A DNA stretch of 64,000 nt from the NCBI GenBank assembly GCA_046704165.1, contig JBJKSI010000125.1, positions 5,672 to 69,671 of the forward strand, in the 5' to 3' direction. Numbering within the stretch: the stretch's first letter is position 1; every line of letters starts with the position of its first letter. This document shows positions 4,469 through 26,477 of the stretch, one piece after another. Made by a program: the position numbers and the translations under genes. The notes beneath the pieces were generated by a model, which was given only the letters and a program-made list of their open reading frames with translations, ran no database searches and was not told where the DNA came from. The DNA is from Candidatus Acidiferrales bacterium (GTDB lineage Bacteria > Acidobacteriota > Terriglobia > Acidiferrales > UBA7541).

Positions 4469-4503
4469 GGACCGGGTGCGAGTCGCAGGCCCGCGCCCGG
4501 TCC
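4469..4503 (-). terminator. Hairpin downstream of eno
   Basis: GGACCGGG(TGCG)...(CGCG)CCCGGTCC stem of about 12 bp including one G:U pair, with an 11-nt loop. It lies 28 nt beyond the eno stop on the minus strand. No clear U-tract. Confidence 0.4.
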
Positions 4504-4530
4504 GGATGCCGGAAGTTTGAGTCGTGGGGG

Positions 4531-5961
<1,431 letters not shown>

Positions 5962-5995
5962 CTATGCCGGGGCGGGAAAGCGGCGATGGCGCCGA

Positions 5996-7228: not shown

Positions 7229-7518
7229 CGGGATCGCTCCGGATGAAAGCTGCCAGCCGGACCCTTCTGCGGACCCGGCCAGATTGGTCGAAGCGTCCTA
7301 CCGAACAGGAGGGAGCCGGAAAGCGCGCCCATTGTAACAGCATTGCGGCCGTGGCCGAAGACGGGTGGGGTCCGTTTCTGGTAAATTAGTTCTTGACTTC
7401 CGAAGGGGGCTTAGCTAGTAAGGAAGCCACCAACAGAGCTCATCAGGCTCCGTGGCAACTGTGGTCCTTCGGAGACATTCCGCAAAATCAGCCCACAGGG
7501 AGAGGGGGTGAGTCTTGA

Positions 7519-10767: not shown

Positions 10768-11178
10768 TCAAGCGGCGACGGCGCGGGAGTTGGGTTGTTG
10801 GGCCAGCGCGGCGAGCTGGGCCTCGTTGACGATGCGTTCGATTGCCTCGAGGAATTCGGCCGGCCGGAGGGCCGGAGCGCCGAGACACGGGCTGCCGCGG
10901 TCGAGGATTGGCACCCACCAGAATCCGTCTTCCACAGGGAGGCGATAGAAAGCGGAGCAGCGCGAACGTTCGATTCGGGAGATCAGAGGACTGGCGAGGT
11001 GCAGGGGATGGATGCTGAGGAGCAGGTCGAATGAGTCAGAGGCGGCGAGCGCCAAGGCCTGCTCAACGCCGAGAGCCACCGTGCACGTGCAGTGGAGAGA
11101 CTCAAGGAGCCTGCGCACGCGAAAGAGGCCGTTCGCCGCTTCCCCGAGGAAAAGCGCTCTTGCCGTCGCGTGACCCAT
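10768..11178 (-). CDS. Hypothetical protein with degenerate receiver (REC)-like fold
   Basis: Third-codon-position GC is high. RALFLGEAANGLFRVRRLLESLHCTCTVALGVEQALALAASDSFDLLLSIHPL follows the REC beta-alpha pattern, but the acidic pocket is GE and the phospho-acceptor position is Ser. Start taken as ATG 11178; the track ORF extends to 11301. Confidence 0.4.
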   Translation of the reverse strand: MGHATARALFLGEAANGLFRVRRLLESLHCTCTVALGVEQALALAASDSFDLLLSIHPLHLASPLISRIERSRCSAFYRLPVEDGFWWVPILDRGSPCLGAPALRPAEFLEAIERIVNEAQLAALAQQPNSRAVAA

Positions 11179-12057
11179 GACTACCACTTCCGACAGGTTT
11201 GCCGTTTCCGCGGCGGTTTCTGAGTTCCATTTGAGCGGCCAAAAAATGGGAAGGCAGCGGTTGGCGGTACGATGGATCCAGCCCTGCGGCTGGTACGCCA
11301 TTACCGGAAGGCGTTTTCTTCCTTATCCGTACTCAGCCGCTGCCTATTCTCAGAGGCCGCGGATTGGCAGGTACGCTTCGAATCCCGTAGCTAGCGGGGG
11401 CGGGAATTCGCCGTACCCTGTCGCGAGAAGGGCGCAACCCCCTTTTCGTGCCGGATCGCGACGCTGGTCCTTTCGACCGGTATCGACGCCATCCGTTTTG
11501 CCTCTGAACCAGCACTGCCTAGGTGAGCACGCGAGATGCCAATCCGGCGGGCGGTACGCCTCCGCAAGTCCTTCCTGCGCTGGGCGATGTCTAGGTCGCA
11601 AATGGCGGCGAATCCGCCAAGAGAGACGCTTGGGGACTTTGCCCCAAGCGAGCGAAGAGTGACTCACCGGCGCGGCAAAACACAGGCTGCGTCTCACTGA
11701 ATCCAAAGACACCCGCAAGAGGAATCCTCCGAACGCATTAAACGCAGAACGCTTTTGCTGACCGCTGTCGCGAGCTGCTTTCACAGTGAACTTGGGCGAA
11801 GGGAAATAGTCGCTTCCGCCTTGGGAGTTTTGACGCTGCGCCGTGTGAGTTTTCCCGGGGCAGTTCTCGGGTAGATGCAAAGCGAAACGGTAATCACCAG
11901 ACATTCAAGGACTTGGGTTCATTCCCGAGAAGCTCTCTTTTGGGGACAGGCGTGCACGAACTTTGGCAAAGGCGAAGGCCGGGAAACGCTTCCAGCGGGG
12001 GAAGACGTCGCCGGCCAAGCGCAGCCGCCGCCCGGCGGCCGAGCAAGGAGAAAGACC

Positions 12058-12513
12058 ATGAAAGTAAAAAAGGCGATGACGAAAGAGCTGCAGTGCTGCA
12101 CTCCGTTCGACACGGTAGTGGACGCCGCCCGCCTGATGCAGACACACGACGTGGGCGCCATCCCGGTGATCAAGGACAAGCAGTCGATGCAGTTGGCCGG
12201 CATCATCACCGATCGGGACATCACATGCCGGGTGACCGCGGCTGGCAAGGCGCCGGGAGAAGTTCGCGTGCAGAAGGCGATGACGCCGAATCCGGTGATC
12301 TGCCATCCGGAAGACAGCCTGGACGATTGCGCGTTGCAGATGCAGAAGCACCGGGTGCGGCGTTTGCCGGTGCTCGACGAGAAGGGCGTGCTGGTGGGCA
12401 TCATCGCTCAAGGGGACATCGCGCGGCACCTGAAGGCCGAGAAGGTAGGCCGGACGGTGGCGAAGATTTCGATGCCAATGCGGCCGCGGCCCCTTCGCCA
12501 CGCCGCGGCTTGA
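12058..12513 (+). CDS. CBS-pair (Bateman domain) protein, Hrp1-like
   Basis: ATG 12058 lies 7 nt after AAGGAG. Two CBS motifs (AMTKELQCCTPFDTVVDAARLMQTHDVGAIPVI...GIITDRDI and AMTPNPVICHPEDSLDDCALQMQKHRVRRLPVLDEKGVLVGIIAQGDIARHL). No other domain. Confidence 0.85.
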   Translation: MKVKKAMTKELQCCTPFDTVVDAARLMQTHDVGAIPVIKDKQSMQLAGIITDRDITCRVTAAGKAPGEVRVQKAMTPNPVICHPEDSLDDCALQMQKHRVRRLPVLDEKGVLVGIIAQGDIARHLKAEKVGRTVAKISMPMRPRPLRHAAA

Positions 12514-12598
12514 GCGAAAGCTGGAAAAGCGGTCCGGCCCGGCTTTTGCCGCGGCAGGGGATCGGCGGCGCGCCGGGCCGTGGCCGGGAAAGGCAGCC

Positions 12599-13780
12599 AT
12601 GTTGGAGATGAGTGAAGTGCGCGCTTTTTCGAGTCTGCCGCGGCCGGTGTTGACAGCCTACCTGGATACCCACCCGGCGAAAGCATCGAACCACGGCCCG
12701 ACACCCGAATACCTGACGTGGATGAACGCCGCGGGAAAGGCCTTGTTGACCGGAGTGCCGGCCGAGGAACGGAAGCTGCTGGAGGAGCAGCTGGATCGCG
12801 TGGAGCTCTACCTCCGTGACCGGGTGCGGACGCAGCGGGGGATGCTGGTGTTTGCCGGCGCGGAGTTGTGGCAGCCGGTGCCGCTGCAGGTGGAGGTACA
12901 AAACGAGCTGCATTGGGGCCGACCGGCGCTTTCGCAGTTGCTCGGCCTGCTGAGCCGGTACAAGCCGTACGGCGTGGCGGTGGTGGACCTGAGCGGGACG
13001 CGCTTTTTCCGCTACCACCTCGGCGAACTGAGCGAAATCGAGGAGAAGAAGTTCGAGATCGATATTTCGCACTGGCGGAAGAAGGATATGGGGAAGTTCT
13101 CCCACAAGGACATCACGAAATCGCGGGGAGTGGACCGCGACAACTTCGAGCGGCGGATGGAGGAGCAATACAAGAAGCTGTGCGCGGAAACTGCCCAGCG
13201 CGCGCACCAACTGGCGGAAACACACGGCTTGGTTGCGTTCTTTCTGGTGGGCGAAGACCGGCTGATCGAGGCGATCGCGGAGTCTTTACCGGCTGATTTC
13301 CGACCGCGCGTGGTGAAGATCCAGGAAGACCTGGCGAAGGTAGTCTCGCCGGCGCTGGAAGCGAGGCTGGAGCCGCACGTGGAGGAATGGCAGCGGGCGC
13401 AGCAGTCGGAAATGGTAACATCGCTGCTCGAAGGCAAGCGCGGCACCGTAACCGGACTCGATCGGACTCTCGATGAATTGCAGAACGGAATGGTTCGGTT
13501 GCTGCTGCTCGCCGCCGATCTGGATCCGACACTGCGGCAGTGCACACGCTGCGGCCGGACCGACCGGGCGGATGGGTCCGTCTGCCTCTACTGCGGCGCC
13601 CAGTGCCGAGCGGCGAGTTTGCGCGACGTGTTGCCGGAGTTGGCGTGGAAGCACGGCGTCGAAGTGGAAATCGTGGACGAGAAGACGTCGGAACGACTGC
13701 GGGAGGCGGGCAGCATCGGTGGCTGGCTGCGGCTGCCGAAGCAGAACAGCGCCCGACGCGCGAGCCGGCGAGCGGGATAG
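12599..13780 (+). CDS. Bacterial eRF1/Pelota-like (baeRF-type) protein with C-terminal zinc-ribbon insert
   Basis: 393 aa with a three-domain layout. The central domain is YGVAVVDLSGTRFFRYHLGE...ISHWRKKDMGKFSHKDITKSRGVDRDNFERRMEE. The eRF1_3-like C-domain is VTGLDRTLDELQNGMVRLLLLAADLD..CTRCG..VCLYCG...GVEVEIVDEKTSERLREAGSIGGWLR. There is no GGQ tripeptide anywhere in the protein. Confidence 0.7.
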   Translation: MLEMSEVRAFSSLPRPVLTAYLDTHPAKASNHGPTPEYLTWMNAAGKALLTGVPAEERKLLEEQLDRVELYLRDRVRTQRGMLVFAGAELWQPVPLQVEVQNELHWGRPALSQLLGLLSRYKPYGVAVVDLSGTRFFRYHLGELSEIEEKKFEIDISHWRKKDMGKFSHKDITKSRGVDRDNFERRMEEQYKKLCAETAQRAHQLAETHGLVAFFLVGEDRLIEAIAESLPADFRPRVVKIQEDLAKVVSPALEARLEPHVEEWQRAQQSEMVTSLLEGKRGTVTGLDRTLDELQNGMVRLLLLAADLDPTLRQCTRCGRTDRADGSVCLYCGAQCRAASLRDVLPELAWKHGVEVEIVDEKTSERLREAGSIGGWLRLPKQNSARRASRRAG

Positions 13781-13859
13781 CGGGGAAAAGCCGCCGACGG
13801 GCCCTTCAGGCAGCGCATTGAAGCGGTAAGCGCCAGGGGAAGGGCGAGCGGCCGGATCG

Positions 13860-16800
13860 ATGAGCAGGCTCGCCAGGATCGTGAAAAGCAAGAGCGCGGG
13901 CTACGTTGCCGCGGTGCTGGGCGTGGCCGCAGCGACGGTGGTTTGCGCCGCGGTGCGCGGCGACATCACCGCCGGAACGGCCGCGCTCGCAATGCTATTG
14001 GTGGTGCTTTTCGTGGCGGCCGGCTGGGGCAGCCGGCCTGCATTCCTGGCATCGATCGTCGGAGTGCTCAGCCTGAGTTTCTTCTTCCTGCCGCCCATCT
14101 ACAGACTGACCATGCGCGATCCACGAAACTGGATCGACCTACTCGTTTTTTTTGTCACCGCATTCATTGCGGGTCAACTCTCCGAGCGATCGAGACGGCG
14201 TGAACAGGCGCTGCGCGAAAGCGAGGCAAACCTCAATACGGCGCAGAAGATCGCCGAGCTGGGAAGCTGGCACCTGGACATTGCACACAACCGGCTGACA
14301 TGGTCGGCGGAAGTGTTCCGCATGTTTGGAATGCCCGAGTCGGCGGTGCCGACCTACGAAATATTCTTGGACAAGGTGCATCCGGAAGACAGGGAGTTGG
14401 TGGATCGGGCCTGGCAGGATGCTCTGACGGGCGGGCACTACGACATCGAACATCGTTTGCTGGTGAGTGGCGAAGAGAAATGGGTGCGGGAAATGGCTCG
14501 GGTACGGCTGGACGCAAGCGGCAATGCCATCGAAGGAATCGGTACGGTGCAGGACATCACCGAGCGGAAGCGGAACGAGGCGGCGCTGCGGAGATCGAAC
14601 GAGGAGATGCAGGACCTGGCGCGGTTGCAGGCGACCGTGGCCGATCTGGGACAGCGAGCACTGAAGCACAGGTCGCCGGAGGAGGTAGCCGACGACGTGA
14701 CGAGCCGGGTGGCGCTGACGCTGAACGTGGACTATTGCAAGATCCTGGAATTCCTGCCGGACCGGCAGGCACTGCTGCTGCAATCGGGCGTGGGCTGGAA
14801 GCCGGGTAGCGTGGGCCACGCGACGGTGGGGATCGGCGCGGAATCGCAGGCCGGATACGCGCTGGAGACAGAGCAGCCCGTGGTGGTGCAGGACTTGAAA
14901 ACGGAAAAACGCTTCCAGGGGACTTCACTGCTGCACGAGCACGGCGTGGTGAGCGGCATCAGCGTCGTAATCCCAACCAAGGAAGGTCCCTACGGCGTGC
15001 TCAGCGTGCATTCGCGCACACGGCGGACCTTCAGCACGAACGAGGTGAACTTCCTGCAGTCGGTGGCCAACGTGCTCGGCTCGGCCATCGAGCGCCAGCA
15101 CGCCGAGATTGAACTGTGGCGGATCAACCGCGCGCAGCGCGCACTGAGCAAGTGCAACGAGGCTCTGATCCGGGCGAGTGACGAGACGGCGTTGCTACAG
15201 CAGGTGTGCTCGATCGTGGTGGAAGAGGCTGGCTACCGCTTCTGCTGGGTGGGGCGCGCGGAGCAGGACGAGCCGCGAACAGTGCGGCCGGTGGCCAAGG
15301 CGGGATTCGAGGCCGGGTACCTGGACAGCCTGGCAATCAGCTGGGCCGACACGGAGCGGGGGCGCGGGCCGGCGGGGTTGAGCGTGCGAACGCGCCAGAC
15401 TGTGGTGGCGAGGAACATCGCTACCGATCCGAAAATGGCGCCGTGGCGCGAGGAGGCGCTGAAGCGGGGCTATGCGTCGTGCCTGGCGATTCCACTGCTG
15501 ATCGATTCGAGCGTGTTCGGCTCGATCCTGATCTACGCCTCGGACCCGGAAACCTTCGGCCCCGAGGAGGTGAATCTGCTGACGGAGATGGCCTCGGATC
15601 TTGCATTTGGCATTACCACGTTGCGGACGCGGGCCGAGCGCGCCCGGGCGGAAGAGGAGGTGCGCAGGCTGAACGCGGAGCTGGAGCAGAGGGTGGCGCG
15701 CCGCACGGCACAGCTGCAGAAGGCGACCCGCGAGTTGGAACAGGCACGCGAGCGGGAGATGGAGGTGGGTTCGCGCATCCAGCAGACGCTGCTGCTCGAT
15801 CAGCCGCCGCAGGACGTGCCCGGACTGGGTGTGGCGGCGCTGACGGTGCCCTCGCAAAAGATCGACGGCGATTTCTACATTTTCCTGAAACACGGGGACG
15901 AGTCGATGGACGTGATTCTGGGAGACGTGATGGGGAAAGGCGTTCCGGCGGCATTGCTAGGATCGGCCACGAAGAGCCAGTTTCTGAAAGCGTTCACGCG
16001 CCTGCTGGACCTTTCGAAGGGGCGGGCGCTGCCGGAACCGCGTGAAGTGGTGATGCTGGCGCACGCGGGGCTGGTGCGCGAGTTGATCAACCTGGAGAGC
16101 TTCGTGACGCTGTGCTACGCGCGGCTGGATGCGGGCCGCCGGCGAATGGACCTGGTCGATTGCGGGCACACGGGAATCCTGCACTGGCGCGGCCGGACGG
16201 GGTTGTGCGAGATGCTGCACGGCAAGAACCTGCCGCTCGGCGTGGTGGAAGGGGAGATTTACGAACAGTTCACCGTTCCGGTGGAGGAGGGCGACCTGCT
16301 GTTGCTGTTCTCCGACGGGATCACCGAGGCGCGGAACGCGGCCAAGGAGCCGTTTGGCATCCAGCGACTGGAAGAATGCGTGCGGGCCTATCGAGAACTG
16401 GACCTGAGCGAACTGCTGGAGGCGATCCGGCGGGAAGTGGTAGCCTTTTCCGGCTCCGAGCAGCTGACGGACGATCTGACCAGCGTGGTGATCCGCGTGG
16501 CGGAGGCCGTGCGGCCGGTGAGGACCGCGGAAACCGCGATCCGGAGCGAGTTGACGCAGTTGCGGCGTGCGCGCGAATTCGTGCGTCAGTTCTGCCGGGA
16601 CCGCTCCGTTCCGGCACTGGGCCAGAAATGCGTGGAAGGGCTGGAGTTGGCGGTGAGCGAGGCGGCCAGCAATATCATGAAACACGCCTACCGCGGCCGG
16701 ACCGACCAGTGGATCGGGCTGGACGGAGAAGCGTTTGAGGATCGGGTGCTGTTCCGGCTGCATCATTTCGGCGAGCCGTTCGATCCGACGATGGCGAAAC

Positions 16801-16964
16801 CACCGGTGCTGGACGGGTCTTGCGAATCAGGGTTTGGTGTCTATCTGATTACTCAAATTACCGACAGTGTGCGTTACTATCGCGACGAGCGCGGACGAAA
16901 CTGCGTGGAGCTTATGAAGATCTGCAAATCCCCCGTACGTGAAAGCGAGACTGCATGGAACTAG
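13860..16964 (+). CDS. Multidomain sensor: DUF4118-like TM module, PAS, 2x GAF, coiled coil, PP2C/SpoIIE phosphatase, RsbW/SpoIIAB-like HATPase
   Basis: 1034 aa. KdpD-type membrane N-terminus. PAS (ELGSWHLDIAHNRLTWSAEVFRMFG...IEGIGTVQDITERKRNE). Two GAF regions. SpoIIE motifs (IDGDFYIF, ILGDVMGKGVPAALL, LLLFSDGITEA). C-terminal anti-sigma-kinase-like N-box and G-box (LAVSEAASNIMKHAY, ESGFGVYLI). Confidence 0.85.
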   Translation: MSRLARIVKSKSAGYVAAVLGVAAATVVCAAVRGDITAGTAALAMLLVVLFVAAGWGSRPAFLASIVGVLSLSFFFLPPIYRLTMRDPRNWIDLLVFFVTAFIAGQLSERSRRREQALRESEANLNTAQKIAELGSWHLDIAHNRLTWSAEVFRMFGMPESAVPTYEIFLDKVHPEDRELVDRAWQDALTGGHYDIEHRLLVSGEEKWVREMARVRLDASGNAIEGIGTVQDITERKRNEAALRRSNEEMQDLARLQATVADLGQRALKHRSPEEVADDVTSRVALTLNVDYCKILEFLPDRQALLLQSGVGWKPGSVGHATVGIGAESQAGYALETEQPVVVQDLKTEKRFQGTSLLHEHGVVSGISVVIPTKEGPYGVLSVHSRTRRTFSTNEVNFLQSVANVLGSAIERQHAEIELWRINRAQRALSKCNEALIRASDETALLQQVCSIVVEEAGYRFCWVGRAEQDEPRTVRPVAKAGFEAGYLDSLAISWADTERGRGPAGLSVRTRQTVVARNIATDPKMAPWREEALKRGYASCLAIPLLIDSSVFGSILIYASDPETFGPEEVNLLTEMASDLAFGITTLRTRAERARAEEEVRRLNAELEQRVARRTAQLQKATRELEQAREREMEVGSRIQQTLLLDQPPQDVPGLGVAALTVPSQKIDGDFYIFLKHGDESMDVILGDVMGKGVPAALLGSATKSQFLKAFTRLLDLSKGRALPEPREVVMLAHAGLVRELINLESFVTLCYARLDAGRRRMDLVDCGHTGILHWRGRTGLCEMLHGKNLPLGVVEGEIYEQFTVPVEEGDLLLLFSDGITEARNAAKEPFGIQRLEECVRAYRELDLSELLEAIRREVVAFSGSEQLTDDLTSVVIRVAEAVRPVRTAETAIRSELTQLRRAREFVRQFCRDRSVPALGQKCVEGLELAVSEAASNIMKHAYRGRTDQWIGLDGEAFEDRVLFRLHHFGEPFDPTMAKPPVLDGSCESGFGVYLITQITDSVRYYRDERGRNCVELMKICKSPVRESETAWN

Positions 16965-17314
16965 CTACCGACACTACCGGCAACGTAGCCGTGGTCGAGA
17001 TCCCCGTTGACGAGTTGGATGCCAGCAACGCCGGAGAACTGAAGCGCGACATCGCTCCGGTGCTGGAAAGCCACACACGTCTGGTGATCGACATGAGCCG
17101 GCTGCGTTTCATCGATAGCTCCGGGCTGGGCGCGATGCTCTCGTGCTTGCGGCAGGTGAGCGCCAAACAGGGCGACCTGAAGCTGTGCTGCATGACGCGG
17201 CAGGTTCGCGGCACGTTCGAACTGGTGCGCATGCACCGCATCTTCGACATCTTTCCCACGCGGGAGGAAGCCGTGCGCGCATTCCGTGCTCAAGGGGACG
17301 GGCACGCGAAATGA
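16955..17314 (+). CDS. STAS-domain anti-sigma-factor antagonist (SpoIIAA/RsbV-like)
   Basis: 119 aa. LVIDMSRLRFIDSSGLGAMLSCLRQV carries the conserved phosphorylatable Ser in DSSGLG. It overlaps the sensor gene by 10 nt and glgP by 4 nt (ATGA). Confidence 0.9.
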   Translation: MELATDTTGNVAVVEIPVDELDASNAGELKRDIAPVLESHTRLVIDMSRLRFIDSSGLGAMLSCLRQVSAKQGDLKLCCMTRQVRGTFELVRMHRIFDIFPTREEAVRAFRAQGDGHAK

Positions 17315-19764
17315 ACCCCTCGGTCAACGCCGTGGACGAGGCGGCAGCGAGCATCGAGGAAGCAATCTGCCGGCACGCGAAGTATTCGCTGGGTAAGGCG
17401 TGGCCGGATCTTTCCCCGCAAGACCGGTTCGCAGCGGTAGCGCTGGCCGTGCGCGACCGGATGGTGGACGGAATGCTGGAGACCGAGCGGCGGTGCGGGC
17501 GGGAAGACCCCAAGCGGTTGCATTACCTCTCCATCGAATTCCTGATCGGGCAGTCGTTGGGCAATAACCTGCGAAACCTGGGCCTTCGGGACGCGTGCCG
17601 GCAGGCTCTGCGGAACCTGGGCGCCAGCCTGGAGGAAATCGAGGAGAGCGAGCCGGACGCAGCGCTGGGCAACGGTGGGCTGGGGCGGCTGGCGGCCTGC
17701 TTCCTGGATTCGCTGGCCACGCTGCGTCTGCCCGGCTACGGCTATGGGATCAACTACGAGTACGGCTTGTTCAAGCAGGAGATCGACAACGGATACCAGC
17801 GGGAGAAGCCGGAGAACTGGCTGGCGCAAAGCAGTCCCTGGCAGATCGAGCGGCCCGATGAAGCCTGCATAGTGCCGGTCTACGGACGGATCGAGCACGG
17901 CGTGGATCGCCAAGGCGTCTACAACCCGATGTGGATGGACTGGAAGCTGCTGATCGGTGTTCCCTACGACATGCTCATCCCGGGTTACGGCGGGGAGGCG
18001 GTGCACGTTCTACGGCTCTACGCGGCGCGATCGTCCCACGATTTCGACATGCAGATCTTCAACGACGGTGATTATTTCAAAGCCGTGGAGCAGAAGATCG
18101 CCTCGGAGACCGTGTCGAAGGTGCTTTACCCTTCGGACGCAGTGATCGCCGGGCACGAGCTGCGGCTGGTGCAGGAGTACTTCCTGGTGGCCTGCGCACT
18201 GCGCGACATCGTGCGCCGGTTCGAGCAGCGGCACACGGACTTTCGCGAACTGCCGGGCAAGGCAGCCATCCAGCTGAACGACACGCATCCGGCGCTGGCG
18301 GTGACGGAGCTGATGCGAATCCTGGTGGACGAGAAGAGCCTGGAGTGGGAAGAGGCGTGGGAGATCACGCGGGCCACGCTGGCCTACACGAACCATACGC
18401 TAGCGCCGGAAGCGCTGGAGAAATGGCCGGTACCACTGCTGGAATCCATGCTGCCGCGACACTTGCAGCTGATCTACGAAATCAATGGGCGTTTCCTGCG
18501 GCAGGTGGCCGCGGCCTTTCCCGGCGACAGGGCCCGGCAACAGCGCATGTCGCTGATCGAGGAATCGGCGACGAAGCAGGCGCGCATGGTGAACCTGGCA
18601 ATTGTTGGCAGCCATTCGGTGAACGGCGTTTCGAAGATTCATACGAAGGCGTTTGAGACGATGCTGGTTCCCGATTTCTACGAGCTGTGGCCGGAGAAAT
18701 TTTCCAACAAAACGAACGGCATCACGCAGCGGCGCTGGCTGCTCGAGGCCAATCCGCGGCTGGCGGACCTGATCACGTCGACCATCGGCGACGGTTGGAT
18801 TACCGACCTGGACCGGTTGCGGGAACTCGAACGATTTTCCGAGGATTCGGGCTTTCAATCGGCTTTCGCCAAGATCAAGCGCGCGAACAAGGAGCATCTG
18901 GCCGAGATCATCCGCGAAACCACTCGGGTGGAGGCGAACCCGGATTCGCTCTTTGACGTCCACGTGAAGCGGATTCACGTTTACAAGCGGCAACTGCTGA
19001 ATGTGATGCACGTGGTGCACGAATATCTCTCTCTGATCGAGGACGGAACGACGCCGGCGGCGCCGCGAACCTTCCTCTTCGCCGGCAAGGCGGCGCCCGG
19101 CTACCGTCTCGCCAAGCAGATCATCAAGCTGATTCACAATGTGGCGCGCGTCATCAATCGCGACCCACGGGCGGCCGAGTGGATCAAGGTGGGTTTTCTG
19201 CCGGACTATCGTGTGTCGCTGGCTGAGAAGATCTTTCCCGCCGCCGACCTCAGCGAGCAGATCTCGACCGCCGGGACGGAAGCTTCAGGCACGAGCAACA
19301 TGAAGCTGGCGCTGAGCGGCGCGATCACTATCGGTACGCTCGACGGGGCCAACATCGAAATTCTCGAAGAGGTAGGCAGGGAGAACATGTTCCTCTTCGG
19401 CAAGCAGACGGCGGAGCTTCGGGCGATGCGCGAAGCGGAATCCTACCACCCGCAGGAAATCTGCAAGCGGGATCCTCGCGTACAGCGGGTCGTCGAAGCG
19501 TTCAATTCGCGGCTGTTCTGCCCCGGGGAGCCGGGCCTTTTCGCCTGGGTGCCTCCGATGCTGCTCGATCCCGGCGACAAATACTTCCACCTGGCCGATT
19601 TTCCAGACTGCCTCGGGGCGCACGAGCGAGCGGCACAGGCGTACGTCGATACGGGCCGGTGGCGGCGCATGTCAATCCTGAACGTGGCGCGCATCGGGAG
19701 GTTTTCGAGCGATCGCACGGTGGCGGAGTATGCGCGGGAGATCTGGCAGCTGAAAAGCGTATAG
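17311..19764 (+). CDS. glgP: Glycogen/maltodextrin phosphorylase
   Basis: Start ATG 17311 (MNPSVNAVDEAAASIEEAICRHAKYSLGK). YLSIEFLIGQSLGNNL, NGGLGRLAACFLDS, and the PLP-Lys motif EQISTAGTEASGTSNMKLALSGAITIGTLDGANIEI. The track ORF from 17143 is an out-of-context upstream extension. Confidence 0.95.
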   Translation: MNPSVNAVDEAAASIEEAICRHAKYSLGKAWPDLSPQDRFAAVALAVRDRMVDGMLETERRCGREDPKRLHYLSIEFLIGQSLGNNLRNLGLRDACRQALRNLGASLEEIEESEPDAALGNGGLGRLAACFLDSLATLRLPGYGYGINYEYGLFKQEIDNGYQREKPENWLAQSSPWQIERPDEACIVPVYGRIEHGVDRQGVYNPMWMDWKLLIGVPYDMLIPGYGGEAVHVLRLYAARSSHDFDMQIFNDGDYFKAVEQKIASETVSKVLYPSDAVIAGHELRLVQEYFLVACALRDIVRRFEQRHTDFRELPGKAAIQLNDTHPALAVTELMRILVDEKSLEWEEAWEITRATLAYTNHTLAPEALEKWPVPLLESMLPRHLQLIYEINGRFLRQVAAAFPGDRARQQRMSLIEESATKQARMVNLAIVGSHSVNGVSKIHTKAFETMLVPDFYELWPEKFSNKTNGITQRRWLLEANPRLADLITSTIGDGWITDLDRLRELERFSEDSGFQSAFAKIKRANKEHLAEIIRETTRVEANPDSLFDVHVKRIHVYKRQLLNVMHVVHEYLSLIEDGTTPAAPRTFLFAGKAAPGYRLAKQIIKLIHNVARVINRDPRAAEWIKVGFLPDYRVSLAEKIFPAADLSEQISTAGTEASGTSNMKLALSGAITIGTLDGANIEILEEVGRENMFLFGKQTAELRAMREAESYHPQEICKRDPRVQRVVEAFNSRLFCPGEPGLFAWVPPMLLDPGDKYFHLADFPDCLGAHERAAQAYVDTGRWRRMSILNVARIGRFSSDRTVAEYAREIWQLKSV

Positions 19765-19772
19765 CGGGGATT

Positions 19773-19804
19773 TTCCGCCGGAACTTTCGAGGTGTGCGGC
19801 GGAA
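19773..19804 (+). terminator. Weak hairpin after glgP
   Basis: TTCCGCCG / CGGCGGAA 8-bp stem with a 16-nt loop, starting 9 nt after the glgP stop and followed by GGGAATTTTA. The large loop makes this tentative. Confidence 0.3.
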
Positions 19805-19882
19805 GGGAATTTTAGAGATAGAGGGTTGAAGCTCCCCGCTACAGGGTTCGAGCACTGGGCACTGGCACGAGGGAATCGTTAA

Positions 19883-19955
19883 TGGGCCCGCCTGGATTCG
19901 AACCAGGGACCGATGGATTATGAGTCCACTGCTCTGACCGCTGAGCTACGGGCCC
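19883..19955 (-). tRNA. tRNA with CAT anticodon (elongator Met, or Ile2 if lysidine-modified)
   Basis: The reverse complement GGGCCCGTAGCTCAGCGGTCAGAGCAGTGGACTCATAATCCATCGGTCCCTGGTTCGAATCCAGGCGGGCCCA folds as a cloverleaf. Acceptor stem GGGCCCG/CGGGCCC, D stem GCTC/GAGC, anticodon loop CTCATAA, T arm CCTGG-TTCGAAT-CCAGG. A paired 1:72 base pair argues against an initiator tRNA. CCA is not encoded. Confidence 0.9.
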
Positions 19956-19965
19956 CGCAGCCCTA

Positions 19966-19994
19966 ACTATAGGCGATGCCGCGGTTTCTTGCAT
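19966..19994 (-). promoter_or_regulatory. Candidate sigma70-type promoter for the tRNA
   Basis: On the minus strand: ATGCAA, 17 nt, TATAGT. The -10 element ends about 10 nt upstream of the tRNA 5' end. The -35 element is weak (3/6). Confidence 0.35.
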
Positions 19995-20199
19995 CAGGCG
20001 CGTGCGTCGGCGGGCTGTTGAAAACGGCCAGTTGGGGAGCGGACGGCTGCCGGGAAGGACACCGGACTGATTGCTGCGGCCCGCCGATTCCCGCTAATCT
20101 GATAAGATGTCTGGCATGGGGGGGGTGCCGAGCTGATGGAGTTGCCTTCTCCTAGGCCGGTTATGCGGTGATCAGAAACCGGGCGCCACACGAGGTACC

Positions 20200-20973
20200 G
20201 TGCGCAGGGAGAACGACGTCGCGAAGCTGGACACGCCGGCTTCCCGAACCTCGCAGGAGCGACCCGCAGACCGGGAGAGTAGTTTGAAAACGAATTGCAC
20301 GGAATGCCCCATCCTCAACAACACACTTTTCCGCAGCCTCTCGACCGACCAGGTGTCGAGGTTCAATTGCATCTTTCGTCCCGCGCACTACCGAAGAAAC
20401 CAGATCATTTTCTTCGAGGGTGGCGCGGCCGATCACCTGTTCGCCATGAATTCCGGACTGGTGAAACTGGTGAAGTCGCTTGAGAACGGCCGGGAGCGCA
20501 TCACGCGCGTCCTCTTTCCCGGTGAGCTGTTCGGCCTGGAGGCGCTGAGCGAAGAGACGTATCCACTGACGGCGGTGGTGCTGCACGATGCCAAGATCTG
20601 CGCCATTCCCTGCCGGGAGTTTTTCTCTTTCCTGCACGGCAATTCCGATATTTCGCTCGACATGATCCGTTTCCTGCTGGGCGAACTCTCCCGGATGCGG
20701 AAGCAGATGACGGCGATGAGTTTCAAGGACGCCCGAGCGCGGGTGGCAATGTTCGTACTATCGCTGCTCTCGCCGGAGTTGTTGGGTAGTGGGCAGGCCT
20801 GCTCGCTCACGCTGCCCGTGACGAGCCACGAGATCGGCGAGATCCTGGAGCTCTCTCCCGAGACAGTCAGCCGGGCCTGGAGCTTCCTGCGTAGGGAAGG
20901 CCTGATTGAAAAGCGTGGCCGGGAACTGGTGATTCAGAACCTGCAGGGACTCGAAGGAGCGGCCAGCCGCTGA
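20200..20973 (+). CDS. Crp/Fnr-family transcriptional regulator
   Basis: cNMP-binding-like barrel (IIFFEGGAADHLFAMNSGLVKLVKSLENGRERITRVLFPGELFGLEAL) and C-terminal HTH (TSHEIGEILELSPETVSRAWSFLRREGLI). The start is uncertain; an in-frame TTG at 20284 follows GGGAGAG. Confidence 0.85.
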   Translation: MRRENDVAKLDTPASRTSQERPADRESSLKTNCTECPILNNTLFRSLSTDQVSRFNCIFRPAHYRRNQIIFFEGGAADHLFAMNSGLVKLVKSLENGRERITRVLFPGELFGLEALSEETYPLTAVVLHDAKICAIPCREFFSFLHGNSDISLDMIRFLLGELSRMRKQMTAMSFKDARARVAMFVLSLLSPELLGSGQACSLTLPVTSHEIGEILELSPETVSRAWSFLRREGLIEKRGRELVIQNLQGLEGAASR

Positions 20974-20995
20974 GTCTGGCGTGTTCCTCCCGGAT

Positions 20996-21018
20996 TTCTC
21001 CCCGTCGACGAAGGGGAG
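20996..21018 (+). terminator. Hairpin after the Crp/Fnr gene
   Basis: TCTCCCC-GTCGACGAA-GGGGAGA (7-bp stem) located 23 nt after the stop. No U-tract. Confidence 0.3.
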
Positions 21019-21104
21019 AGCCTTGCCGGAGTCGCGGCCGCCCGGGCAAACGGATTTGGGAAAAACGGTCTTCCCGCCGCATTGAACGCCTCATCTAAAC
21101 CTAC

Positions 21105-21134
21105 TAGTTGGCCAAATTAAAGCAATTAGTTGGC
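21105..21134 (+). repeat. Direct repeat TAGTTGGC x2 in an AT-rich island upstream of the propeller/haem operon
   Basis: TAGTTGGC occurs at 21105-21112 and 21127-21134, a 22-nt register (about two helical turns). It is embedded in CTAGTTGGCCAAATTAAAGCAATTAGTTGGCGCTAG, one of the most AT-rich stretches I noticed by eye. It is followed by TTGACT (21141) and by TTGACG-17 nt-TAGCGT (21176-21204). Confidence 0.35.
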
Positions 21135-21290
21135 GCTAGATTGACTTTTGCCATCCTACTTTAGCTCATCCGTCATTGACGCTGTTTCCCCCCTTGCCTA
21201 GCGTTACCAGACTGCCTTTGCGGGCAAACGCAGTTCAGCCAGCTCTTTAGCGGCATTCTTCGGGCCGGTTCGCATGCGGTCCAAGGGGAA

Positions 21291-22799
21291 TTGGAAACGG
21301 TGGAACAGGGCGGTGGCAGGAATCCAAGAACTTCAAGGTTTGAAAACGTATACCGAATCGTCCCGGTTATTGCGTTCCTCGTGGTTTTAGGCCTCGCCTT
21401 CGGCATTACGAGACAGTCCTTTGCAAGACCGGAACCGAGGTCGGCCGGCGTGTTGCCGCCGATCATCTTTGTCGAGGCACCGGTGGTAGTGCCTGGCTCT
21501 CCGTCGACGCGTTTTCCCCGCGGAAGCCATTTGGCACTTCTTCCACCGGCCACGCCCGCCACTACTCCTGTAAACCTGACCCCGGACTTCTTCGCCGCGG
21601 CTGATCCGCAGGTTTCCTTCGATGGCCGCCGGGTGCTCTTTGCCGGGCGGAAGACGCGGGCTGGGCACTGGCAGATCTGGGAAATGAACGTCGACGGCAC
21701 GGGCAAGAAACAGATCACCAGTGGCCGCGCGGACTGTTTCCGTCCGGCCTATCTGCCCCGAAACGAAATCGTCTACACGAGGGTGAGCGCACAGGAAGGC
21801 GCGCGCACGTCGGCGATCTACGTGGCCGGCCTGGACGGTTCCGGCGCCCATCCGATCACGTTTGGGCCCGGCGATTTCCGCGTGGAAGCCGTGCTGCACA
21901 GTGGACGAATCCTGATTTCGGCCGGATCGCGGCTGGTTTCCGGCCGCCGAGTCGAAGGATCACGGGTGTTCTACACGGTGCGAACGGATGGCTCTGGACT
22001 CAGCCTGTTTCGCTGGGACCGCCATGCGGGCGTGGTGCAGGGCGGAGCGGTTGAACTGAGGAACGGCACGGTTCTCTTCGTGGAGCGGAGAGACGGCCCT
22101 GATCGCGTAGGCGGCGGCGAGTTGGCGTGGTTCCGGCCGGGCGCGCTGCAGGATTCAAGGATCACCGCACCAGGCGCGGTTTACTGGTCGGCCAAGCGGC
22201 TGGATGGAGACCGTTTGGTTGTGGCAAAGAGGAGTTCCGACGGTCGCGGCGCGCAGGGCACATTCGGCCTCTACGTTTTCGATCTGGCCAGGCAGTCGGT
22301 GGGCAAGGCGATCTATCGCAATCCGAAGCTCTCCAGCGTGGAAGCGGTGGCCGTGGAGCCGCGTCGCGTGCCCAGGGAATATTGGAGCATCCTGCATCCC
22401 AAGCGCGATTACGGCCGGCTGATCTGCCTGAACGCCTATCTTTCCTCCGATGTGGCCTCGGGACGGCTCTCGGGAGAGATCGCTCGAGTGCGAGTGGTCG
22501 CGCTGGAACACCACCGGCAGAGAACCCTGGGCGAGGCGCCGGTGGAAAGCGACGGCTCGTTCTACGTAAAGGTGCCGGCTAATCGCCCGATTCGGTTCGA
22601 GTTGCTGAACGCGAAGGGAAAGGTGATCCACCAGCAGCAGAGCTGGATCTGGGCGCGCACGGGCGAGGACGTGCCTTGCCTGGGCTGCCATGAGAGCAAG
22701 GCGCTGGCGCCGCAGGATCGCTGGCCGCTGGCGCTGAGGGCACCCGGCGCTCCGTTTCCGCTCGGCGTGCCGGCGACTTCCCATTCCGCAACACATTGA
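21291..22799 (+). CDS. Membrane-anchored TolB-like beta-propeller protein with HzsA-like C-terminal module carrying one CxxCH haem-c motif
   Basis: 502 aa. TM helix IVPVIAFLVVLGLAFGI. TolB-type blades (PQVSFDGRRVLFAGRKTRAGHWQIWEMNVDGTGKKQIT; IYVAGLDGSGAHPITFG). C-terminal DGSFYVKVPANRPIRFELLNAKGKVI..WIWARTGEDVPCLGCHE. The start is a TTG and is uncertain. Confidence 0.6.
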   Translation: METVEQGGGRNPRTSRFENVYRIVPVIAFLVVLGLAFGITRQSFARPEPRSAGVLPPIIFVEAPVVVPGSPSTRFPRGSHLALLPPATPATTPVNLTPDFFAAADPQVSFDGRRVLFAGRKTRAGHWQIWEMNVDGTGKKQITSGRADCFRPAYLPRNEIVYTRVSAQEGARTSAIYVAGLDGSGAHPITFGPGDFRVEAVLHSGRILISAGSRLVSGRRVEGSRVFYTVRTDGSGLSLFRWDRHAGVVQGGAVELRNGTVLFVERRDGPDRVGGGELAWFRPGALQDSRITAPGAVYWSAKRLDGDRLVVAKRSSDGRGAQGTFGLYVFDLARQSVGKAIYRNPKLSSVEAVAVEPRRVPREYWSILHPKRDYGRLICLNAYLSSDVASGRLSGEIARVRVVALEHHRQRTLGEAPVESDGSFYVKVPANRPIRFELLNAKGKVIHQQQSWIWARTGEDVPCLGCHESKALAPQDRWPLALRAPGAPFPLGVPATSHSATH

Positions 22800-22806
22800 G
22801 GAGTTT

Positions 22807-24516
22807 ATGAGCATCTCCCGAAGGGACTTTCTGAGACTGGGCGCGGCCGGAGGAGCGCTGCTTGCAGTGCCGGGGATCTGGGTGGGCGCCGTCGAACCAC
22901 GGGCCGATTCAGCGATCGCCCTGCCTCAGTTCCTGGACGTGACCGCGAAGGCCGGCATCGATTTCCAGCACTCGTTCGGCGAAACGGAGCTGAGCTCGAT
23001 TCTGGAGGGGACGGGTTCTGGTTGCGTCTGGTTCGACTACAACAACGACGGCTTGCTCGACCTCTACGTCGTGAACGGGCGCTACGTGGAGGGCCTGACA
23101 AACCATTCGGAGCCCTCCGGCCGGAACGCCACGAACCATCTGTACCGGAACAACGGCGACGGCACGTTCACGGACGTGACCGCGGAAGCAGGCGTCGGCG
23201 GCAAAGGGCTGGGCACGGGCGTGACGGTAGGCGATTTCGACAACGACGGTTACCAGGACATCTACGTTACCGGATACAAGTTCGCCATCCTGTATCACAA
23301 CAACGGCGACGGCACGTTCACCGACGTGACGGGCGACGCCGGCGTGGACAATCCTTTCTTCGGCGTCGGTGCGGCGTTTCTCGATTATGACCGCGACGGG
23401 CACCTGGACCTGTTCGTCGGCAATTACCTGAATTTCGTGCCTTCCTACCACCAGTTCTACCCGGGAGACCATTACCCGGGACCGCTTGACTACCAGCCCG
23501 AATTCAACCGGCTGTTCCACAACAACGGCAACGGCACGTTTACCGACGTCTCAAAGCAATCGGGCATCGGGCGGGTGGCGGGCCGGGCGATGGGCGTGAC
23601 CGTGGGTGATTTCGACAACGACGGCTGGCCGGACATCTACGTCGCCAACGACAACATGCCCAGCTACCTCTACCACAACAACCGGGACGGCACGTTCAGC
23701 AATGTCGCCGCCAGCCTGAACGTGGCTTACGGGCAAGACGGTGAAGCGACCAGTGCCATGGGGCCGATCTTTGGCGATTACGACAACGACGGCTGGCAGG
23801 ACCTGTTCGTCTCCGATGCCCGTTTTCACCGGTTGTTCCACAACCCGGGCAAGGCCGGCGGACTCTTCGAGGACGTGACCAACCAGTCGGGTATCGGCGC
23901 TATCTGCGGGCAGTACACCGGTTGGGGCGACGGATTTTTCGATTACGACAACGACGGCTGGAAAGACATCTTCATCGTCAACGGCGGTCTGACCTGGCTG
24001 ATCCCGATGGAAAGCAATCTGCTGCGAAACAACGGCAACGGGAGGTTCACCGACGTCTCAAAGACGTCCGGCAGCTTCTTCACTCAGCGCCACGTGAACC
24101 GGGGCGTCTGCTTCGGCGACTACGACAATGACGGCTATCTCGACGCCTTCGTCAACACATTGGGCGGCAAGGGCATTCTGTTGCACAACACGCCGACCGA
24201 AGACGCGCGCAACCACTGGCTGACGGTGAAGCTGGTGGGCACGCGGAGCAATCGCGACGGCTACGGCGCTGCATTGGAGGCTGTTGCGGGCGATCTGCAC
24301 CAGTACGTGCAGGCTGTTTCGGGCTCCGGCTACCTGAGCCAAAGCGATTCACGGCCGCATTTCGGGCTGGGCTCGCATGAGCGGGTGGACAAGCTGATCG
24401 TTCGCTGGCCGAGCGGGACCGTCCAGACGCTCGAGAACATAAAAGCGGACCAGATCCTGACGGTGCGAGAGCCTGCTGGGCCGGCGCCCGCCGCGAAACC
24501 AGGCAAGGCGAGATGA
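22807..24516 (+). CDS. CRTAC1-family protein (FG-GAP/VCBS repeats plus ASPIC/UnbV C-terminal domain), Tat-exported
   Basis: 569 aa. Twin-arginine signal MSISRRDFLRLGAAGGALLAVPG. Repeated FDYNNDGLLDLYVVNG / GDFDNDGYQDIYV / GDYDNDGWQDLFV motifs. UnbV_ASPIC tail WLTVKLVGTRSNRDGYGAALEA...SGYLSQSDSRPHFGLG...VRWPSG. Confidence 0.85.
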   Translation: MSISRRDFLRLGAAGGALLAVPGIWVGAVEPRADSAIALPQFLDVTAKAGIDFQHSFGETELSSILEGTGSGCVWFDYNNDGLLDLYVVNGRYVEGLTNHSEPSGRNATNHLYRNNGDGTFTDVTAEAGVGGKGLGTGVTVGDFDNDGYQDIYVTGYKFAILYHNNGDGTFTDVTGDAGVDNPFFGVGAAFLDYDRDGHLDLFVGNYLNFVPSYHQFYPGDHYPGPLDYQPEFNRLFHNNGNGTFTDVSKQSGIGRVAGRAMGVTVGDFDNDGWPDIYVANDNMPSYLYHNNRDGTFSNVAASLNVAYGQDGEATSAMGPIFGDYDNDGWQDLFVSDARFHRLFHNPGKAGGLFEDVTNQSGIGAICGQYTGWGDGFFDYDNDGWKDIFIVNGGLTWLIPMESNLLRNNGNGRFTDVSKTSGSFFTQRHVNRGVCFGDYDNDGYLDAFVNTLGGKGILLHNTPTEDARNHWLTVKLVGTRSNRDGYGAALEAVAGDLHQYVQAVSGSGYLSQSDSRPHFGLGSHERVDKLIVRWPSGTVQTLENIKADQILTVREPAGPAPAAKPGKAR

Positions 24517-26477
24517 AGATGCGCTTGGAAAAAGAGGCAGGCAGGAAACGCAGCCGGCGCTGGCCGGTGCTAATGGGATCGCTTGGGTTGCTGTTGCTAG
24601 TGGCGGCGTTCGGCGCGCAGCGCTCGCAGGGCCGCGCGACCGACTGGCAGAGGCAGGTGCCCGGCGGAGGGCCGAGCTACCTCGATCCGATCGCGTTGAA
24701 GCTCTCGCCGCACGGCAAGCGGCTCTACGTTGTGTGCGAGGGCAACGACGAGTTGCTGGTGGTGAATACGCGCACGAGGTACGTCATCGGGCGGGTGAAG
24801 GTGGGGCATCGGCCAGAGGGGATTGCGGTGTCGCCGGACGGGAAGACGCTCTACGTTTCGAACCAATGGAGTGACTCGGTTTCGGTGATCGACGCGGCTA
24901 CGCTGCAAGTGGTGCGGACGCTGAAAACCGGCTGGGGCCCGGTGGGCGTGACGACCGACGGTTCCGGAAAGTTCCTCTATACCGCGAATACGCTTGGGGA
25001 CGACGTCTCGGTGATCGACCTGGCAACGGGCAGGGAGCTCAAGCGGCTGGCCGCCGGCCATTTCCCGGAATACGTCGCTCGCTCGCGGAACGGCCGCTGG
25101 ATCTACGTGGCGAATCTGCTTGCGCACGTGGCGCCGCCGCACGTGACGCCGTCCGCGCAGCTGACGGTGATCGATGCGGAGCGGCAGGTGGTAGCCAACC
25201 GGATCATGATTCCCGGCGCGATCCAGTTGCGGCGCATTGCGCAGGTGCCGGCAAAGGAAGGCGGCTACCTGCTGATCCCGTTTCTGCAACCCCACAATCT
25301 GATCCCGCTGATTCAGTTGCAGCAAGGCTGGTACGTGTCGCACGGCATGGCGGTGATCCGGTTGCCCGCGTCGGGCCGGGGGAAAGCGCGGGTGATCGAG
25401 GTGCTGCTCGACAACATCGACCACGCCTACGCGGACGGATTTGGCGCCGCTTGCTCCCGCAACGGGAAACTGGCGCTGGTGACGGCATCGGGCGCGAACG
25501 TAGTTTCGGTGATCGACGTAGCGAAGCTCGCCCGTCTGCTCGACCGCGTGCCGCGCAACGATCCCGAGGCGCTGGCTGACCGGCTGGATTCGGCACGGCA
25601 GTTCGTGCTCCGGCGCGTACCCACCGGGCGCAACCCGACTGCGGTGGTGATCTCGCCCGACAGCAGCACCGCCTACGTTGCCGACCGGACCGACGATACG
25701 CTGACCGTTGTGAACTTGCGGCGGCTGGGAGCGACCGCGACGATCCGGCTGGGCGGGCCGAAAGTGATCACGCGGCGGCGGCGCGGCCAGCAACTGTTTT
25801 TCGACGCACGTTTCTGCTACCAGGGCCAGGTGGCCTGCGCCACCTGCCATCCGCACGAGGGGTTTGAAGACGCGCTGGTCTGGAGCCTGGAGACGCCGGA
25901 TCTGGGCCGCGACGTCACCGAAAACCGTACTCTGCTGCAGATCGCCGGCACCTCGCCCTTCAAATGGAACGGCCTGAACCCGAACCTGGCGACGCAGGAT
26001 GGTCCGCGCACCGCGATGTACATTTTCCGCTCGCAGGGATTCAGCCACACCCAGGTGCAGGACCTCGTCCGCTTCATCCGCTCACTGCGGCTGCCGCCCA
26101 ATCCGCACCTTGGCCCCGGCGGCCGGCTGAACGCCCAGCAGCGGCGTGGGCGCGCGATTTTCTTCCGCACGAAGACGAACACCGGAGAGATCATCCCGGA
26201 TCGAGACCGCTGCTACTACTGCCACGCGCCGCTGACCCATTACACCTCCCGGGTCAAGGAGAACGTAGGCACGGGGACGCGGTACGACACGGACAAGATA
26301 TTCGATGTGCCCCAGCTCCAGGGCATATACATGCGGCCGCCGTACCTGCACAACGGCGAGGCGCTGACGCTCGAAGAGATCTGGACCAAGTACAACCCGA
26401 AGGACAAGCACGGCTACACCTCCGACATGAACAAGGTGCAGTTGAACGACCTGATCGAGTTTCTGAAGACCTTATGA
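24513..26477 (+). CDS. YVTN beta-propeller fused to a di-haem cytochrome c peroxidase/MauG-like domain
   Basis: 654 aa. The start overlaps the previous stop (ATGA). YVTN repeats (GHRPEGIAVSPDGKTLYVSNQWSDSVSVIDAATLQVV; GRNPTAVVISPDSSTAYVADRTDDTLTVVNL). Two CxxCH motifs (CATCHPHEG and CYYCHAPL) lie in a CCP-like C-terminus. Confidence 0.8.
   Translation: MKMRLEKEAGRKRSRRWPVLMGSLGLLLLVAAFGAQRSQGRATDWQRQVPGGGPSYLDPIALKLSPHGKRLYVVCEGNDELLVVNTRTRYVIGRVKVGHRPEGIAVSPDGKTLYVSNQWSDSVSVIDAATLQVVRTLKTGWGPVGVTTDGSGKFLYTANTLGDDVSVIDLATGRELKRLAAGHFPEYVARSRNGRWIYVANLLAHVAPPHVTPSAQLTVIDAERQVVANRIMIPGAIQLRRIAQVPAKEGGYLLIPFLQPHNLIPLIQLQQGWYVSHGMAVIRLPASGRGKARVIEVLLDNIDHAYADGFGAACSRNGKLALVTASGANVVSVIDVAKLARLLDRVPRNDPEALADRLDSARQFVLRRVPTGRNPTAVVISPDSSTAYVADRTDDTLTVVNLRRLGATATIRLGGPKVITRRRRGQQLFFDARFCYQGQVACATCHPHEGFEDALVWSLETPDLGRDVTENRTLLQIAGTSPFKWNGLNPNLATQDGPRTAMYIFRSQGFSHTQVQDLVRFIRSLRLPPNPHLGPGGRLNAQQRRGRAIFFRTKTNTGEIIPDRDRCYYCHAPLTHYTSRVKENVGTGTRYDTDKIFDVPQLQGIYMRPPYLHNGEALTLEEIWTKYNPKDKHGYTSDMNKVQLNDLIEFLKTL

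Follow-up and report, generated by a model that had tools for sequence, protein, structure and literature searches.

We analysed a 64-kilobase (kb) stretch of DNA from a Candidatus Acidiferrales bacterium (contig JBJKSI010000125.1; henceforth the window, with positions counted from its first nucleotide), in which the gene of a membrane sensor is followed, on the same strand, by the gene of a small STAS protein and by glgP, the gene of glycogen phosphorylase. Judging from the sequences of these proteins and of their relatives, the cassette is best described as a partner switch of the HsbR/HsbA type, with glycogen catabolism (GlgP, often GlgX and once Zwf) as its conserved genomic partner. The three genes, their junctions and the feature that follows them are listed below.

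13860-16964, plus strand: membrane sensor gene (1034 amino acids; domain order DUF4118-PAS-GAF-GAF-PP2C-HATPase_c_2)
16955-16964, plus strand: 10-nucleotide (nt) overlap between the 3' end of the sensor gene (TAG stop at 16962-16964) and the 5' end of the STAS gene
16955-17314, plus strand: STAS gene (119 amino acids; single-domain protein of the anti-sigma-antagonist family)
17311-17314, plus strand: ATGA overlap between the STAS stop (TGA, 17312-17314) and the glgP start (ATG, 17311-17313)
17311-19764, plus strand: glgP (817 amino acids; glycogen (alpha-glucan) phosphorylase of family GT35)
19883-19955, minus strand: tRNA-Met (CAT), directly after glgP

Both overlaps had been pointed out in the original prediction, a reading of this DNA from its letters alone, and both were confirmed by the sequence and the translations; they recur, again at 10 and 4 nt, in gene calls made independently on three further contigs whose STAS protein is identical. 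The STAS gene is a separate open reading frame (ORF) in a frame different from that of the sensor, i.e., it is not a C-terminal STAS fusion of the Rv1364c type. Scanning positions 11000-21300 for promoters and terminators revealed no sigma-70-like promoter and no terminator-like site between the three genes, a result of little weight, and Rfam at the gathering threshold returned the tRNA-Met only, with no riboswitch or other RNA leader. As the tRNA-Met that comes next lies on the opposite strand, glgP ends the co-directional run.

Components of the cassette

The STAS protein matched PF01740 (E-value 1.4e-20; 73.4 bits against a cut-off of 22.6) and TIGR00377, "anti-sigma factor antagonist" (73.2 bits; cut-off 53.45). 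Its FIDSSGLGA motif is in register with SpoIIAA (PDB 1TH8), such that D54-S55-S56-G57 correspond to D57-S58-S59-G60. Ser55 (codon 17117-17119) thus aligns with Ser58, the phospho-acceptor of SpoIIAA, and is the predicted phospho-acceptor here, which bears out the earlier statement that the phosphorylatable serine of DSSGLG is intact. The DSSG motif was invariant in all aligned homologues (33/33). A total of 2319 STAS homologues were found, the best 120 clusters being 70-94% identical. The strongly conserved STAS core reads FVDSSGLGA..SCLR..GGDLKLC..VR..FELVRMHR.F.I.

The sensor combines a membrane and a cytoplasmic input with both enzyme domains of a partner switch, arranged as follows (all on the plus strand and all identified with Pfam).

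13902-14219, plus strand: DUF4118 (KdpD-like transmembrane domain; 1e-24)
14268-14573, plus strand: PAS domain
14673-15095, plus strand: first GAF domain
15177-15614, plus strand: second GAF domain
15897-16499, plus strand: PP2C/SpoIIE phosphatase domain (sensor residues 680-880; SpoIIE, 2.3e-40)
16542-16916, plus strand: HATPase_c_2 kinase domain of the RsbW/SpoIIAB kind (sensor residues 895-1019; 2.4e-18)

Its relatives in the PDB were RssB of Pseudomonas aeruginosa, SpoIIE and RsbW. All four metal-binding aspartate motifs of the PP2C domain (GD, DVMGKG, SDG and DDLT) align with those of SpoIIE, as expected of a competent phosphatase. The kinase domain retains its N-box (E..N..H) and its G2 box (SGFG), both invariant among the relatives compared, which suggests that it still binds nucleotide. 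The G1-box aspartate of RsbW (ADEGD), a residue that contacts adenine in GHKL ATPases, is a histidine in the window (LHHFGEPFD; near sensor residues 967-975). All glgP-linked relatives share this substitution, as do several outgroups, the aspartate being kept in the distant loci L021, L030 and L056; the change could possibly reflect an altered nucleotide specificity or a pseudokinase.

The third protein is a glycogen phosphorylase that matched PF00343 over its full length (E-value 0; 713/713 positions) and TIGR02093 with 1089 bits (cut-off 553), and contains EASGTSNMK, the motif with the lysine that carries pyridoxal phosphate. Its best match in the PDB was rabbit muscle phosphorylase (872 bits), followed by bacterial GlgP structures (about 774 bits) and MalP of Escherichia coli (718 bits). 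The alignment with the rabbit enzyme begins past the Ser14 segment (residue 14 of GlgP pairs with residue 15 of 2FFR_A and is preceded by 13 unrelated residues), and the enzyme of the window therefore lacks the N-terminal Ser14 regulatory peptide.

Linkage to glycogen catabolism in relatives

We added 160 loci from scans of species-representative genomes and metagenome contigs, and classified them by tblastn with the PP2C, HATPase, STAS and GlgP sequences of the window together with a GlgX query. The class counts given here cover loci with a STAS protein at least 59% identical and with informative flanks.

26 loci: glgP immediately downstream of the STAS gene
2 loci: glgP separated from the STAS gene by a single gene, either a convergent GlgX-type isoamylase gene (L093) or zwf, encoding glucose-6-phosphate dehydrogenase (L129)
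3 loci: glgP directly upstream of the sensor gene (L015, L016 and L117; L016 domain-checked)
3 loci: gene of a GlgX-type debranching enzyme only (convergent in L089 and L092; on the same strand and overlapping the STAS 3' end in L113)
19 loci: neither glgP nor glgX

In most of the 19 loci of the last class the upstream flanks were truncated, and the sequences group with glgP-upstream or kdp-associated loci. At a STAS identity of at least 70%, 18 of the 19 informative loci were linked. With over 30 independent loci and three different gene orders, the adjacency of STAS and glgP is far beyond chance. The proposal in the original prediction that STAS acts on GlgP would have been given up had this adjacency been absent from relatives, and it survives. 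Its further suggestion of stoichiometric co-translation applies to some loci only: the ATGA overlap is not conserved, the distance from the STAS stop to the glgP start, about -26 to +26 nt at most loci, was 61-420 nt in L112, L011, L007, L091 and L096, and the three loci with glgP upstream have the whole sensor gene between glgP and STAS.

GlgX also adjoins several glgP-linked cassettes (L005, L011, L015, L091 and L096), and the input domains of the sensor vary among the trios. Specifically, the DUF4118-PAS-GAF-GAF arrangement of the window recurs in L001, the input in L005 (record labelled Gallionellaceae) is GAF-PAS, and in L004 genes for a histidine kinase and a receiver protein come before that of a REC-SpoIIE-HATPase_c_2 sensor. 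A trio with a frameshift-fragmented glgP was present on two long-read contigs. All named carriers of the linked cassette are metagenome-assembled genomes, labelled in their records as Terriglobia/Acidobacteriota, Nitrospinota, Rokubacteria, Acetobacteraceae, Gallionellaceae and Binataceae, and the species-representative genome set held no cultured glgP-linked carrier. In the matches from cultured bacteria (Geomonas, Citrifermentans, Geobacter, Methylocystis and Pseudacidovorax), STAS identity did not exceed 46% and glgP was absent.

A glgP also lies next to two STAS genes that are more distantly related. In L080 (Desulfovermiculus; 4381-7321), glgP is followed by a gene for a STAS protein that is 41% identical, with no adjacent kinase or PP2C gene; in L141 (5456-8967), a STAS gene (47% identical) is followed by a PRK/uridine-kinase-family gene and a divergent GlgP gene, again with no adjacent PP2C or partner-switch kinase gene. 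A FecR-type anti-sigma gene lies upstream in L141.

Modules of the clade often stand beside K+/Mg2+ transport genes, namely kdpA/kdpB/kdpC in L009, L087, L088 and L116 (in the last of which kdpA comes directly after STAS), a P-type cation ATPase gene in L004, MgtE in L014 and CNNM in L005. Taken together with the usual DUF4118 input, which is the membrane domain of KdpD, these neighbours hint at an ionic or osmotic signal.

Phylogeny and co-variation of STAS and GlgP

In a neighbour-joining tree of PP2C, HATPase and STAS sequences, all linked modules fell into one clade regardless of gene order, i.e., the linkage survives rearrangement. The GlgP proteins of the cassettes were also monophyletic, with that of the upstream-type L016 branching near the base. 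Two loci, L009 and L017, were nested inside the linked clade, and L014 and L020 formed an unlinked sister group. On the outer branches (STAS 45-55% identical) the genes that follow the module encode glycosyltransferases (L022 and L027), a nucleotide-sugar epimerase (L031) and a sugar transferase (L056), a Syp-like theme of polysaccharide control; in these four relatives a sigma factor was never the next gene. We found no convincing GlgP-specific surface on the STAS protein: E20 alone was clearly enriched in the linked clade, and V18, E28 and I96 were weakly so.

We then compared pairwise distances between the components at the 15 loci with full data. Distances of STAS correlated with those of GlgP at r = 0.82, with those of PP2C at 0.67 and with those of HATPase at 0.68; for comparison, PP2C and HATPase, which are fused in one protein, gave 0.85, and GlgP and HATPase 0.65. 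In a partial Mantel test the correlation between STAS and GlgP, given PP2C and HATPase, was 0.64 (reached by 0 of 5000 permutations) and stayed at 0.64-0.68 in leave-out tests. When GlgP was controlled for, STAS correlated significantly with neither PP2C nor HATPase, and the partial correlation between GlgP and PP2C was weak.

This co-variation is the sole result that bears on a specific relationship between STAS and GlgP, and it is suggestive rather than decisive. The comparison is limited to 15 loci, and partial Mantel tests over-reject (i.e., are anticonservative) when the data have a phylogenetic structure. Moreover, the same signal would arise if recombination had exchanged the sensors and left STAS and glgP joined, and L012 looks like a case of such a swap. 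Under either explanation, STAS and GlgP are the conserved core of the cassette.

Sigma factors and other genes of the window

The original prediction had stated that no sigma or anti-sigma factor is encoded in the 64 kb. The first part stood, with no sigma-70 or sigma-54 domain in the 53 ORFs of the window that were scanned (50 with Pfam, mostly of at least about 120 amino acids and including STAS, and 3 with NCBIfam; ORFs below about 100 amino acids lay outside the scan). The second needs qualifying, as an RsbW-like domain of the anti-sigma type is fused to the sensor itself. The window also encodes a second STAS protein.

49646-49993, plus strand: orphan single-domain STAS gene (115 amino acids; IDSAGLG motif; TIGR00377, 63 bits)

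This gene has no adjacent kinase or phosphatase gene; convergent to it is a 444-amino-acid ORF (50000-51334, minus strand) without an NCBIfam match.

About 10 kb upstream of the cassette lies glgC, encoding glucose-1-phosphate adenylyltransferase (5996-7228, minus strand; NF001947, 571 bits), and genes of glycogen synthesis and breakdown are therefore found in one neighbourhood. Directly upstream of the sensor are genes for a CBS-pair protein (11875-12513, plus strand) and a baeRF_family10 (bacterial eRF1-like) protein (12599-13780, plus strand), a pair retained in the 85%-identical relative L001 (3008-4731) and absent from the other cassettes. Beyond the tRNA-Met, a Crp/FNR-type regulator gene (cNMP_binding and HTH_Crp_2; 20200-20973, plus strand) is followed by a run of secreted or redox-type genes that are apparently unrelated to the cassette, all on the plus strand: a protein with the middle domain of hydrazine synthase alpha (21291-22799), an FG-GAP/ASPIC protein with a TAT signal (22807-24516) and a beta-propeller with a di-haem cytochrome c peroxidase domain (24513-26477).

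A candidate switch for glycogen breakdown

Considering the above, we regard a functional link between the module and glycogen catabolism as very probable. In the mechanism that we favour, the membrane DUF4118 and the cytoplasmic PAS and GAF domains (in relatives, a receiver domain fed by a histidine kinase) would perceive signals that set the balance of kinase and phosphatase activities and thereby the phosphorylation state of STAS Ser55; one form of STAS would then bind GlgP and turn glycogen breakdown on or off post-translationally. Four points of this scheme are inferences: the role of STAS as the output, its contact with GlgP, the direction of the effect, and a kinase domain that is active despite its unusual G1 box. 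A direct contact, with one phospho-state of STAS binding GlgP and changing its activity, is a credible proposal that we make tentatively, and we are marginally more guarded about the fuller version in which STAS would be an allosteric subunit of GlgP, providing a dedicated Ser-phosphorylation switch in a widespread uncultured clade. Precedents for STAS acting on enzymes are HsbA~P, which binds the diguanylate cyclase HsbD in a system where the phosphorylation state of STAS decides its partner (PMC5085249, PMC6482189), and the STAS domain that regulates the glycosyltransferase All4160 in HenR-All4160 of Anabaena (PMC13555669).

Several observations weigh against this interpretation, especially against its more specific parts. 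Within 7 kb on either side of the module, L009, L014 and L017 have no glgP, and L009 and L017 lie near kdp genes. In L089, L092 and L113 it is GlgX, with no GlgP, that is encoded beside the module; given these loci and the zwf gene inserted in L129, a pathway-level link fits as well as a specific contact between STAS and GlgP. The outgroups linked to glycosyltransferases conserve the STAS core to the same degree, i.e., its conservation is not specific for GlgP, and the residues concerned probably touch the kinase and phosphatase domains and not GlgP. With a histidine in the G1 box, the kinase activity of the sensor is not assured. Finally, an exhaustive HMMER search with the STAS protein against 1.84 billion representatives, of which the best 150 were inspected, contained no genuine STAS-GlgP fusion among those 150. 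Three candidates (P0215, P0122 and P0127) were frameshift chimeras of HATPase-STAS-GlgP from error-prone assemblies, and the genuine long fusions, which belong to more distant homologues, were of HATPase_c_2 and STAS or of sensor and STAS only (P0128, P0150, P0157 and P0251).

The most serious alternative is a conventional partner switch with its target (a sigma factor, an anti-sigma factor or another regulator) encoded elsewhere in the genome. In that case glgP, with glgX or zwf, would merely be co-transcribed, as part of the regulon of the switch or of the same stress or starvation response, and STAS and GlgP would not touch. HsbR and CrsR, which have the same fusion and an adjacent STAS gene, sequester RpoS that is encoded far away (PMC6482189), and in the icfG cluster of Synechocystis sp. 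PCC 6803, which includes an isoamylase gene, the kinase Slr1861 is nonetheless an anti-SigC factor, i.e., the output is transcriptional (PMC12329169). Because the sigma targets of these systems are encoded elsewhere, little can be concluded from the lack of a sigma factor nearby, which weakens one argument of the original prediction, and STAS may likewise have its target elsewhere. The neighbouring enzyme is not always GlgP, as would be expected of a pathway operon. The clade members L009, L014 and L017 lie far from any glycogen gene, glgP could be expressed separately at those loci where 158-420 nt precede it, and in L109 the gene after STAS encodes a LuxR-type response regulator. Against this, neither the annotated neighbours of the cassettes nor the window yielded a sigma or anti-sigma gene, and simple co-transcription predicts neither the retention of glgP through three gene orders nor the co-variation of STAS with GlgP. 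We hold an elsewhere-encoded target to be possible, though somewhat less likely than a direct contact.

A second alternative places GlgP where the sigma factor would be, with the HATPase_c_2 domain of the sensor holding GlgP (by inhibiting it or tethering it to the membrane) until unphosphorylated STAS displaces it. In canonical systems the output is indeed held by the kinase domain and not by STAS, as RpoS is by HsbR and CrsR (PMC6482189), and the clade-wide change from aspartate to histidine in the G1 box could mark a shift towards a binding role. Yet the distances of GlgP track those of STAS (r = 0.82) better than those of HATPase (r = 0.65, with the other domains uncontrolled), the invariant N-box and G2 box suggest that nucleotide is still bound, and no HATPase_c_2 domain is known to sequester a metabolic enzyme; we consider this arrangement unlikely. 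Least probable is that the adjacency has no regulatory meaning and reflects hitch-hiking gene order in one lineage or a horizontally transferred block: the linked loci do form a single clade, and their carriers, all metagenome-assembled, have mutual STAS identities of 59-85%, compatible with the recent spread of a block, but the linkage persists with glgP downstream, upstream or separated by glgX or zwf, as well as across replacement of the sensor input and across records labelled Acidobacteriota, Nitrospinota, Rokubacteria, Acetobacteraceae and Gallionellaceae, further glycogen-catabolic genes cluster around the module, and the distant STAS genes of L080 and L141 independently adjoin a GlgP gene.

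Significance of the linkage

To our knowledge, control of bacterial glycogen breakdown at the level of the enzyme is poorly understood, with little described beyond HPr and GlgP of E. coli, and the partner switches known to us act on sigma factors, on a small number of signalling enzymes or on polysaccharide synthesis. A conserved cassette in which GlgP, GlgX and Zwf are tied to a partner switch is a concrete and testable candidate for phosphorylation-dependent mobilisation of carbon stores in Acidobacteriota-like soil bacteria, and the linkage recurs in dozens of uncultured bacteria of soil and water. If the proposed contact is real, GlgP would be the first enzyme of central metabolism shown to be the output of partner switching, and the range of enzymes governed by STAS proteins would be wider. 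The variable inputs (membrane/PAS/GAF or receiver), together with the frequent kdp and other ion-transport neighbours, hint at a tie between glycogen use and the ionic or osmotic state of the cell. No cultured carrier of the linked cassette is known, and any test will therefore have to rely on synthetic genes.

Comparison with known systems

The components of the cassette and their logic are known; its conserved partner, glycogen catabolism, is new. No link between a STAS protein or a partner switch and glycogen phosphorylase was found in the full-text literature searched, in agreement with the claim of the original prediction that such a switch is not described.

Closest in architecture are HptB-HsbR-HsbA of P. 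aeruginosa and CrsR-CrsA of Shewanella oneidensis, which likewise combine PP2C and an RsbW-like kinase in one polypeptide and have an adjacent STAS gene. The relative L004 even shares their REC-PP2C-HATPase_c_2 layout, with a histidine kinase before it. By contrast, the sensor of the window has a membrane DUF4118-PAS-GAF-GAF input in place of a receiver domain, and its G1-box aspartate is replaced by histidine. The conserved neighbour here is glgP or glgX rather than flagellar or hpt genes, and a partner such as RpoS or FlgM is not known for the module of the window. The likeness to HsbR is one of architecture; the only P. aeruginosa structure hit was the PP2C domain of RssB (E-value 1e-7).

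The icfG cluster (slr1856-slr1861) comprises the RsbW-like Slr1861, the PP2C phosphatase IcfG, the STAS proteins Slr1856 and Slr1859 and the isoamylase gene slr1857, and resembles the cassette in joining a partner switch, tied to carbon and glucose metabolism, with a gene of the glycogen-debranching type (PMC12329169). This likeness is known here at the level of domain families, and the cluster differs in that kinase and phosphatase are separate proteins and that the enzyme is an isoamylase rather than GlgP.

In SypE-SypA of Vibrio fischeri, a STAS protein under kinase and phosphatase control regulates carbohydrate-active enzymes post-transcriptionally. Together with HenR-All4160, this system has a glycosyltransferase theme in common with the more distant relatives of the module. 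The order in SypE is kinase-REC-PP2C, in a polysaccharide biosynthesis locus, whereas that of the window is input-PP2C-kinase, beside glgP; All4160 has its STAS domain fused to the glycosyltransferase, whereas STAS is a separate protein here. The targets in both systems are enzymes of polysaccharide synthesis, in contrast to the glycogen degradation considered here.

Finally, phosphorylase activity depends on the state of protein phosphorylation both in E. coli, through HPr and GlgP, and in animals, through phosphorylase kinase and PP1. The phosphorylated protein is a small binding partner (HPr) in the former and the enzyme itself in the latter. STAS is not homologous to HPr, the resemblance would be an analogy of logic only, and the GlgP of the window, though closer to the animal enzyme than to MalP, is without the peptide that carries Ser14. 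Should the proposed switch operate, it would be a bacterial counterpart, made of unrelated parts, of the control that phosphorylase kinase and phosphatase exert in animals.

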